A DNA stretch of 64,000 nucleotides from Thermoplasmatales archaeon (GTDB lineage Archaea > Thermoplasmatota > Thermoplasmata > Thermoplasmatales > Thermoplasmataceae), in assembly GCA_027310185.1 (NCBI GenBank), contig DAIDBH010000018.1, positions 64,001-128,000 of the forward strand, written 5' to 3'. Position numbers and translations under genes: made by a program. Under the pieces are notes generated by a model. That model had not been told where the DNA came from. It did not search any database and saw nothing but the letters and a program-made list of their open reading frames with translations. Shown here in pieces: positions 58,556 to 60,968 of this stretch; position 1 is the stretch's first letter; every line of letters begins with the position of its first letter.

Positions 58556-59722
58556 TTATTCCACCCCCAGTATATGAACAACAGATGCAACACCTGAGCC
58601 TGCCATGTTATGTATCATTGCGGTCTTTGCGTCTTTTATCTGCCTCTTGTTCGCTCTTCCCTTCAACTGCAAATATGCTTCTACTGCCTGTCCAACGCCA
58701 GTTGCACCATAGGGGAATCCCTTGGCTTTCAGACCACCGGATGGATTTACCGGCAATCTGTCATTAAGAGATATACCCTCTTCAATCAGTTCCTTCGCCT
58801 TTCCCTTATCAGCAAATCCAAGATCCTCCAGAGCTATCAAACCATAAATATTATAAGAATCATGGACTTCAACGAAAGATACATCTGAGTTCTTCATGTT
58901 TGCATCCTTTAGCGCCTTTCTTGCTGCCAGTTTTGTAGGTTCTACTGTATACAGGCATTCCCTGCTATGAAGCGCAAATGGGCCCTGTGACATTGCAGAT
59001 GACAGTATCTTTACACCCTCTATGGAATTCTTCTTCACATATTCCTCAGAAGCAAGTATGACACTTGAAGCACCATCACTGAGGGGTGCACAGTCCATTA
59101 GGTTGAGGGGTTCAGCAATCAACGTAGCATTAAGAGCCTGCTGTACCGTTATTTTATTCCTGAAGTGTGCACTCTCATTGAGACTTGCATTCAGATGATC
59201 ATTTACTGATAGTTTTGCGAGGGCTTCCTTAGGTACATTGAAATCCTTCAGATACTTCCTGGCAGAAAGGGCAGCGAGAGCAGCAGGAGTTCCACCTTCG
59301 AACGCTTCCCACTCCCTGTCAAGTATGGAAGAGGTTATGTCAATGTTCTCATTTCCGTAAAGTTCCGTCATTTTCTCAGCTCCTCCCACCATTACAATAT
59401 CGTATTCTCCTGACTTAATTGCAAGATACCCTTCCCTGATGGCTGCGCCTCCAGATGCAGTTGATGCTTCAATTCTCATTGATGGGATGTACTCAGAAGA
59501 TATTCCTGCATGATCTGACATCAATGCACTCAGATGTTCCTGCCTGCTTATATCTCCACCAAGACTGTTGCTCATATAAATGGCCCCAAGATCCCTTGTC
59601 CTGATTCCTGCATCCTCCACAGCCTTTAAACCAGCTTCCACTGCAATGTCTCTCAGTGATCTGTCCCACAATTCTCCGTACTTTGCCTCTCCTGCCCCTA
59701 TTATATAAACACTCTTACTCAA
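58556..59722 (-). CDS. Archaeal thiolase-fold protein with degenerate active site
   Basis: GGAEKM, SDGA, EVHD, NPSGGL present; EASTASGG and KGFPYGATG replace EAACASG and KGHPxGATG. Confidence 0.9.
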
Positions 59723-60776
59723 CGTCTTCACCCAGTATTAATTTCTTCTTGAATTTGGCATACATGCCGTAGTCAAGGAATATGGTATCCTCCAGCATTT
59801 CTCTTACTGTTACTGCACCTCTTTTATGCAAATTCTCTATTTCTGAATTGACTTCAATGTGAAATGCATCAGAACCTGCCCCCGAGCCAAATGACACTGC
59901 AAGTATCCTATCCCCATCCTTCGCAACATCCAGTATGGCTGAAAGTCCAACCATCATTGCACCGGAATAGGTATTTCCTATGAGCGGAGTTAGCAATCCC
60001 TCCTTGTACTGTTTTTCTTCAAATCCCAGTAACTTTGCAGCCCTGGTAGGGAATTTACCATTTGGCTGATGAAATACTGCATAATCATAGTCTTCAGGCT
60101 TGGTTTTCATTCTCTCCATCATTTCCTTTCCAGCAGACACAACATGCTTGAAATAGGCGGGCTCGCCAGTAAATCTCTCCCCGTGTGTAGGATATGGCTG
60201 GCCTTCTCTTCTCCAGAAATCTGGAGTATCTGATGTCACAGATAAAGTTGACTTGATCTCTGCCGCAACATTTTCACTTCCTATGATCATGGCTGTTCCA
60301 CCTGCAGATGCTGAATATTCCAGTACATCACCTGGTGCACCCTGCGAAGTATCAGAACCAATTGCCATTCCTGTCTTGATCATTCCTGACTGGACCATTG
60401 CAAGTACATTCTGCATTCCTGCTGTACCTGCCTTGCACGCAAACTCGTAATCGGCAGCGAACATGTCGAACTTTGCTCCTATTGCTGAAGACACAATTGT
60501 GGCTGTTGGTTTTACTGCATAGGGATGGCTTTCTGAGCCTATATACATTGCCTCTATCTGTTCACCCTTTATACCTCCTCGCTTTAACGCTGTCCTTGCA
60601 GCCTCAACAGAGATTGTTGCTACATCCTCATCAGGAGAAGGAACAGATTTACTCAGAATGTAGATACCATTCTTTATGTTCTCCGGATCCTCTCCCCAGA
60701 TCCTGGCTATTTCGTCTGGTTTGATCCTGTATTTTGGGATATAACTCCCGTAACTTACTATTCCACTTTTTCCCAT
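59715..60776 (-). CDS. Hydroxymethylglutaryl-CoA synthase
   Basis: [40 protein letters not shown]. Confidence 0.95.
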
Positions 60777-60968
60777 ATCTGGGGTTAAAATTTCAAACAT
60801 ATTTAAAAATTGTTAAATATGGCTTCGACAAATGACTAATCAAAAGTTCATAAATTCAAAAAATAAGGAGAAAATCTGCAAACATGACATGAACTGTAAG
60901 CAAAAACAATTAAAGAATAATATCAATAAAAAATAAATAGATATAATATCTATCTCACTGGGAATAAA

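Follow-up and report, generated by a model that had tools for sequence, protein, structure and literature searches.

A conserved predicted pseudo-thiolase in the HMG-CoA synthase operon of a Thermoplasmatales archaeon and its relatives across the phylum

Here, we show using profile searches, alignment to solved structures, fold prediction and a comparison of genomes across the phylum that the thiolase-like gene in the HMG-CoA synthase (HMGCS) operon of a Thermoplasmatales archaeon has lost the catalytic residues of a thiolase while the gene, its operon and its predicted fold are conserved; judged from its sequence, the product is a real, conserved pseudo-thiolase within a known type of complex. 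The complex of thiolase, HMGCS and a DUF35 protein has been presented as the archaeal solution to the unfavourable thiolase reaction with which membrane-lipid synthesis starts. We propose that the protein is probably a retained pseudoenzyme that serves HMGCS as a scaffold or CoA-site subunit, the acetoacetyl-CoA coming from a classical thiolase. What this work adds is a survey at the level of the phylum and the complementarity between the operon copy and the classical thiolase.

The operon and its thiolase-like gene

The gene lies in the window, by which we mean the whole stretch of 64,000 nucleotides that was analysed, within a tightly packed minus-strand cluster in the order HMGCS, thiolase-like, DUF35 (Table 1). 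Its frame opens at a GTG at 59731, which overlaps the 3′ end of HMGCS by 17 nt, or at an alternative in-frame TTG at 59722 (codon 4, the boundary given in the original prediction), which overlaps it by 8 nt; the ATG of the DUF35 gene follows directly after its TAA stop. HMGCS scores 562 bits on the equivalog profile NF003274 (cut-off 244) and 550 bits on TIGR00748. The residues E90, C122, H244 and N276 are invariant across 51 orthologues, and so are C22, C25, C36 and C39 of the DUF35 zinc ribbon; from its residues, the HMGCS of the operon is predicted to be catalytically intact. Two metatranscriptome libraries of one sample in one study contain the stretch, and one contig spans 57600-60764 with zero differences, yet contigs of RNA libraries may derive from DNA and are not evidence of expression.

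Among solved structures, the best match of the thiolase-like protein is the thiolase of M. thermolithotrophicus (6ESQ_A; E 1.8e-86 over residues 7-388), whose nucleophile motif EAACASG is EASTASG here (Cys to Thr91), whose HDCF is HDSY (Cys to Ser292, with His290 and Asp291 retained) and whose GHALGATG is GFPYGATG (His to Phe339). The Thr (ACT) and Phe (TTC) codons each lie two bases away from Cys and His codons and are thus not single-base errors. The protein lacks all three residues expected of an active SCP2-type thiolase, namely the nucleophilic Cys, the GHP His and the HDCF Cys. Thiolase_N and Thiolase_C_1 domains are present, and the protein passes NF004720, the profile for archaeal-type, SCP2-like thiolase-domain proteins (475.5 bits, cut-off 420), and falls short of NF053570, the acetyl-CoA acetyltransferase equivalog of the archaeal complex (410.1 bits, cut-off 600). 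Its place between HMGCS and DUF35 is that of a subunit of the thiolase/HMGCS/DUF35 complex. Named close relatives are found in Cuniculiplasma and Thermoplasmatales MAGs, and the protein of Oxyplasma meridianum is 67% identical. Each of the 17 orthologues from the family sampled first carries Thr, HDS[YF] (one has HNSY) and F, Y, D or N at the His position, which makes this a fixed state and not the outcome of chance or assembly error.

The original prediction had read EASTASGG, KGFPYGATG and HDSY in a full-length ORF beside an HMGCS with its catalytic Cys and His. By alignment to 6ESQ_A and codon reading, the replacements are correct in every detail; the 391-aa frame spans the 6ESQ_A alignment with zero internal stops, and the HMGCS residues are C122 and H244 of the invariant set. 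It had also called for an orthologue alignment with dN/dS, and in that comparison the catalytic loss is fixed in the family and dN/dS is 0.03-0.05 in the usable genus pairs.

Is a gene with such replacements decaying? The dN/dS of the thiolase-like gene, HMGCS and DUF35 is 0.031, 0.024 and 0.019 for the pair L001-L005 and 0.048, 0.037 and 0.039 for the pair L014-L016, these being the only two of 55 genus pairs with a usable estimate, with dS saturated in the other 53. The gene is under strong purifying selection, like HMGCS, and is not decaying; this selection and the loss of the catalytic residues together mark a pseudoenzyme. The ratio of thiolase-like to HMGCS amino-acid divergence is 1.1-1.4 in Cys-less groups versus 0.97 in one Cys-keeping family, and the constraint is thus slightly relaxed, not lost. 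The AlphaFold model, built from an alignment of 52 sequences, has a pLDDT of 91.9 and a pTM of 0.92, and its top Foldseek match is again 6ESQ_A (TM 0.93, rmsd 1.6 Å, 41% identity). Across the 52 diverse orthologues, 41 columns are invariant, including the loops GGLKxxGxPxGxxG and PxxDG, the latter of which we take to be the counterpart of the pantetheine-binding loop of thiolases. A complex prediction with HMGCS, DUF35 and the thiolase-like protein entered as alignments scored 0.90, against 0.81 for a control in which HMGCS was replaced, and counts neither for nor against binding.

Table 1. Features of the locus in the window, and thiolase-fold genes elsewhere in the same genome (G000; contig and positions given)
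Feature	Position	Strand	Basis or remark
HMG-CoA synthase (HMGCS), archaeal type	59715..60800	-	NF003274 and TIGR00748 profile scores; tetrad E90, C122, H244, N276
Thiolase-fold protein without catalytic residues (predicted pseudo-thiolase), 391 aa	58556..59731	-	Profiles and alignment to 6ESQ_A
Codon ACT, Thr91, position of the nucleophilic Cys	59459..59461	-	6ESQ_A alignment and codon reading
Codon TCT, Ser292, Cys position of the HDCF motif (reads HDSY)	58856..58858	-	6ESQ_A alignment and codon reading
Codon TTC, Phe339, His position of the GHP motif (reads GFPYGATG)	58715..58717	-	6ESQ_A alignment and codon reading
DUF35 protein (zinc ribbon and OB fold), 133 aa	58154..58555	-	PF01796 73.8 bits, PF12172 41.5 bits
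ORF converging on the DUF35 gene, 152 aa	57691..58149	+	Thiol-peroxidase-like motif PKDDTPGCT (by eye)
Classical thiolase	C4:81049-82215		Adjoins 3-hydroxyacyl-CoA dehydrogenase and enoyl-CoA hydratase
Classical thiolase	C1:254889-256154		Adjoins acyl-CoA dehydrogenases and ETF
Classical thiolase	C1:195070-196245		Standing alone
Second Cys-less thiolase-like gene, 420 aa	C12:126810-128072		Outside the window
Second Cys-less thiolase-like gene with its DUF35 gene	C12:126322-128072		DUF35 gene (163 aa) directly downstream

Cysteine loss and the classical thiolase across the phylum

The order HMGCS, thiolase-like, DUF35 is retained in 28 of 28 loci of relatives, in 59 of 60 sampled loci of the class, where the single miss is a contig end, and in 38 of 40 sampled loci of the phylum. 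The other two phylum matches are a canonical paralogue with Cys, HDCF and GHP, with no HMGCS or DUF35 in the fetched stretch, and were dropped from the tree. For the class and phylum samples, which are not random, between one and a few genomes were taken from each family code among the listed matches. The frame is intact, with no internal stops, in the operon copies of all 28 relatives and in every orthologue extracted.

The nucleophilic Cys is missing from 84 of the 108 rows of the tree set. At the nucleophile position these rows hold Gly (35), Cys (24, of which 3 are outgroup), Asp (18), Ser (14), Thr (12), Glu (4) and Asn (1), and at the GHP His position His (49), Asn (18), Gln (16), Asp (12), Tyr (7), Phe (3) and Arg (3); named operon loci of Methanomethylophilaceae and Methanomassiliicoccaceae read EAGGASGG. 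A 70-row tree (LG+C20, quick search, SH-aLRT only) has two changes of the Cys state, one at the base of this family and two sister families (Ser/Thr type) and one at the base of the other orders of the class (mainly Gly). A 108-row tree (LG+G4, quick) requires a minimum of six changes, of which only two are forced by supported branches. The loss of the Cys is not local but extends through the phylum.

Classical thiolases, scored by TIGR01930, were found above the cut-off in 291 of 301 genomes of the class. The ten class genomes without a match fall into families f6 (7/7), f8 (1/1) and f11 (2/48); three unpublished genomes (G112, G211 and G270) count only in the two class tallies. At E <= 1e-40, the phylum sample has matches in 104 of 121 genomes, 103 of them above the cut-off. 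For the 101 tree rows in which both traits are known, the classical thiolase is present in 80 Cys-less rows and not found in 0, and is present in 7 rows that keep the Cys and not found in 14, a tally in which relatives are not independent, the independent Cys-loss events numbering only 2-6. When Cys loss and the classical thiolase were compared by independent pairs, only two pairs lay on supported branches and the test had no power. The operon copy keeps its Cys and His where a classical thiolase is lacking, in f6 and f8 and in the less complete genomes G019, G021 and G024 (80-88% completeness). The same holds in the phylum sample, whose motifs were read only after the class-level pattern had been seen, for six of six sampled genomes that lack a classical thiolase. 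A classical thiolase looks necessary for loss of the Cys and not sufficient for it, as far as this phyletic pattern goes; the seven Cys-keeping rows that have one mean that its presence does not force the loss.

Individual genomes give a similar picture. In four Methanomassiliicoccales genomes the thiolase-fold genes number exactly two, a classical one and the Cys-less copy of the operon. The classical thiolase is intact in the two-thiolase Methanomassiliicoccales genome in which one copy was read, and the neighbours of a classical thiolase in a genome of this order, a TiaS-like protein and an M20 peptidase, are uninformative. In two of three genomes of one genus, about 180-250 bp separate the classical gene from the operon, and the two are on opposite strands. 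These classical thiolases beside the HMGCS operon are G022:C20:4314-5456 and G029:C13:21836-22978, and the operon thiolase of the genus has Ser at the nucleophile with the His kept.

Two draft genomes of family f11 that are outside the tree and belong to one genus of Methanomassiliicoccales type, G304 and G317 (each 96% complete and in 30 contigs), have a Gly-type operon copy, and a classical thiolase was not found in them by TIGR01930. Two complete congeners do carry one. On contig C4 of G304, the site syntenic with the classical thiolase of the congeners holds other genes, in a region that is rearranged. The classical thiolase is likely missing from G304 and G317 because of assembly gaps; two misses among 48 f11 genomes (95-99% completeness) are about the number that gaps would give.

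The genome studied here, 99.5% complete, has three classical thiolases (Table 1), each with intact Cys, NEAF, GHP and CxG motifs. At 42-43% identity, the C4 copy is the most similar of the three to the one classical thiolase that the Methanomassiliicoccales genomes have, and from its sequence and position it is most likely the supplier of acetoacetyl-CoA. The genome also contains a second Cys-less thiolase-like gene with a DUF35 gene of its own (Table 1). That protein has Gly at the nucleophile (RVEGGGATGG) and HDAY and retains GHP, and the gene is conserved across the genus (matches at E about 1e-40).

A retained subunit and its alternatives

Why would a subunit without catalytic residues be kept? 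We propose that the thiolase-like protein descends from the thiolase subunit of the thiolase/HMGCS/DUF35 complex of archaea and is catalytically dead, a protein which would no longer form the acetyl-enzyme and acetoacetyl-CoA because the nucleophilic Cys, the His and the HDCF Cys have all been replaced, and which would be retained because HMGCS still needs it. Together with the DUF35 protein it would make up the assembly and, where HMGCS and thiolase meet, the shared CoA-binding chamber, while a free-standing, bacterial-type (classical) thiolase would make acetoacetyl-CoA that HMGCS takes up from solution. Passages of PMC12960953, citing Vogeli 2018, report that archaeal HMGS lacks activity, and ACAT is insoluble, if either is expressed by itself, and describe a fused CoA site where HMGS and ACAT meet, both of which offer a reason to keep a dead subunit. 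If HMGCS needs its partner for activity and CoA binding, a lineage with a redundant classical thiolase could lose the chemistry of the partner, but not the partner.

The original prediction had proposed such a subunit, acting as a scaffold or binding CoA while another thiolase supplies acetoacetyl-CoA, and every comparative test that was run fits that part of it. The loss of catalytic residues that it saw is real in this genome, but is not the feature of one genome that it was taken for, given its spread through the phylum. The option it left for Ser/Thr chemistry finds no support, as related lineages have Gly, Asp, Glu or Asn at the position and the His partner is gone here too.

A repurposed enzyme is the strongest of the alternatives, and we consider it improbable. 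The remodelled pocket (Thr91, Ser292, Tyr293, Phe339 and the retained His290-Asp291) would catalyse a different CoA-thioester reaction, as happened when the Ltp2/Sal aldolases and the Phl/Muc acyltransferases arose from this fold, likewise with DUF35 as partner. Systems of a thiolase fold with DUF35 have been repurposed repeatedly (extracts of PMC12329534 and PMC12960953), and PDB 6OK1, 9MYR, 5MG5 and 9VBO are among the fold matches; moreover, His290 and Asp291 are nearly invariant, and the Thr/Ser of this family, like the Asp of other classes, is conserved and not random. However, lineages that share this operon context have very different residues in place of the Cys (see the residue counts above), and the His position also varies (N, Q, D, Y, F, R), a pattern more in keeping with lost function than with one new catalytic design. 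The protein, reading HDSY, does not have the aldolase signature Y-D-[H/C]-[F/Y], and with an intact HMGCS adjacent the product of the operon should still be HMG-CoA. The Thr/Ser conserved in this family, and the Asp with a retained His in other classes, could nevertheless hint at a residual or new function.

More improbable still is that the complex makes acetoacetyl-CoA by another route, for instance with the HMGCS Cys doing both condensations or through decarboxylative condensation of malonyl-CoA in the Cys-less pocket. G304 and G317, without a detectable classical thiolase, would fit such a route, and so would a Cys-less homologue, TbSLP, that is described in an extract of PMC12329534 as decarboxylating malonyl-CoA very slowly. 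But these two exceptions are incomplete drafts, whereas all 80 Cys-less tree rows of known status have a classical thiolase and the Cys is kept in all 14 genomes that lack one, a dependence that is unexpected if the complex is self-sufficient. A functionless remnant that decays while its position inside an essential operon carries it along, suggested by the loss of all catalytic residues, is scarcely credible in view of a dN/dS of 0.03-0.05, the intact frames, the 41 invariant columns and the confidently predicted fold.

Known systems and the entry to isoprenoid lipids

The closest known system to the proposed scaffold or CoA-site subunit is the M. thermolithotrophicus complex (6ESQ), which has the same three-gene set and is the best match in both sequence and fold. 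Its thiolase has the Cys, the GHP His and the HDCF Cys, in contrast to Thr, Phe and Ser here, and with these replacements the present protein would be unable to perform the thiolase half-reaction that defines the 6ESQ complex. The bacterial PhlABC and MucABC and the P. fluorescens ACAT/HMGS-DUF35 complex are similarly tripartite, with one thiolase-superfamily subunit dead but retained (passages of PMC12960953). They are a mirror image of the arrangement proposed here, since in them HMGS has lost the E-C-H-N tetrad and ACAT keeps its Cys, whereas here HMGCS appears intact and the ACAT-type subunit dead.

Other relatives share single features. Sulfolobus tokodaii ST0096 (PDB 4YZO; E 1.6e-63, TM 0.85/0.96) has an archaeal-type thiolase fold that also lacks the nucleophilic Cys, but it keeps the GHP His, unlike the protein studied here. 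The Pyrococcus furiosus thiolase PFC_04095 (PDB 7YVY) has HDAF for HDCF, like the Cys-keeping families of this order; it retains the nucleophilic Cys and the His, which are both gone here, and loss of the HDCF Cys alone is thus compatible with the name 'thiolase' given to that entry. The steroid side-chain aldolases Ltp2/Sal (PDB 6OK1 and 9MYR; extract of PMC12329534) also combine a Cys-less thiolase fold with a DUF35 domain. They are only 20-22% identical, and the steroid or hydratase context is absent here; an Ltp2/Sal-type aldolase identity was considered and rejected, as their YD[H/C][F/Y] motif (same extract) is replaced by HDSY.

In a full-text literature search, no account of an operon thiolase without the Cys was found for these archaea, and the name ST0096 returned one passing mention. 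In an extract from Hoshino and Gaucher (2018; PMC6107057), many 'other AACT homologs' are without the Cys-His motif, and the main text, as far as the extract goes, treats the archaeal AACT as universal. The same extract notes that some archaea have a bacterial-type thiolase II and that the archaeal thiolase II homologues cluster among bacterial ones.

If the thiolase is dead in most of the phylum, the operon gene would be unreliable as the acetoacetyl-CoA-forming step in annotation and metabolic models. In that case, channelling would be dispensable in these lineages or achieved otherwise, and the first step of archaeal lipid synthesis would there depend on a bacterial-type thiolase. The dead ACAT here and the dead HMGS in bacteria would then form a natural mirror-image pair for studying why pseudoenzyme subunits are retained.

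A bolder account goes further and, taken as a whole, is rather unlikely, although we rate it above the alternatives discussed above. Most of the phylum, including Thermoplasmatales and the methanogenic Methanomassiliicoccales, would have given up the channelling machine of thiolase and HMGCS that is regarded as nearly universal in archaea, and the thiolase subunit would have died at least two times independently after a bacterial-type thiolase became available. The dead subunit would have become an obligatory part of HMGCS that captures acetoacetyl-CoA or CoA or activates the enzyme, not a passive brace, and maybe a catalyst of new chemistry where Asp and His are conserved. Isoprenoid lipid synthesis would then be entered through a chimaera, part bacterial enzyme and part half-dead archaeal complex.

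Two further motif variants were observed in operon loci. In many families of other classes of the phylum, a conserved Asp occupies the nucleophile position (EAADASGG) and the GHP His is retained (L192, L193, L199, L201, L202, L206-L209, L217-L219 and others), and this conserved pair, on the residues as read, may be more than simple loss. Several families have GGGACG or AAGACG (L143, L149, L151, L154, L156 and L165), with Gly at the nucleophile and a Cys two residues downstream, where canonical thiolases have Ser.
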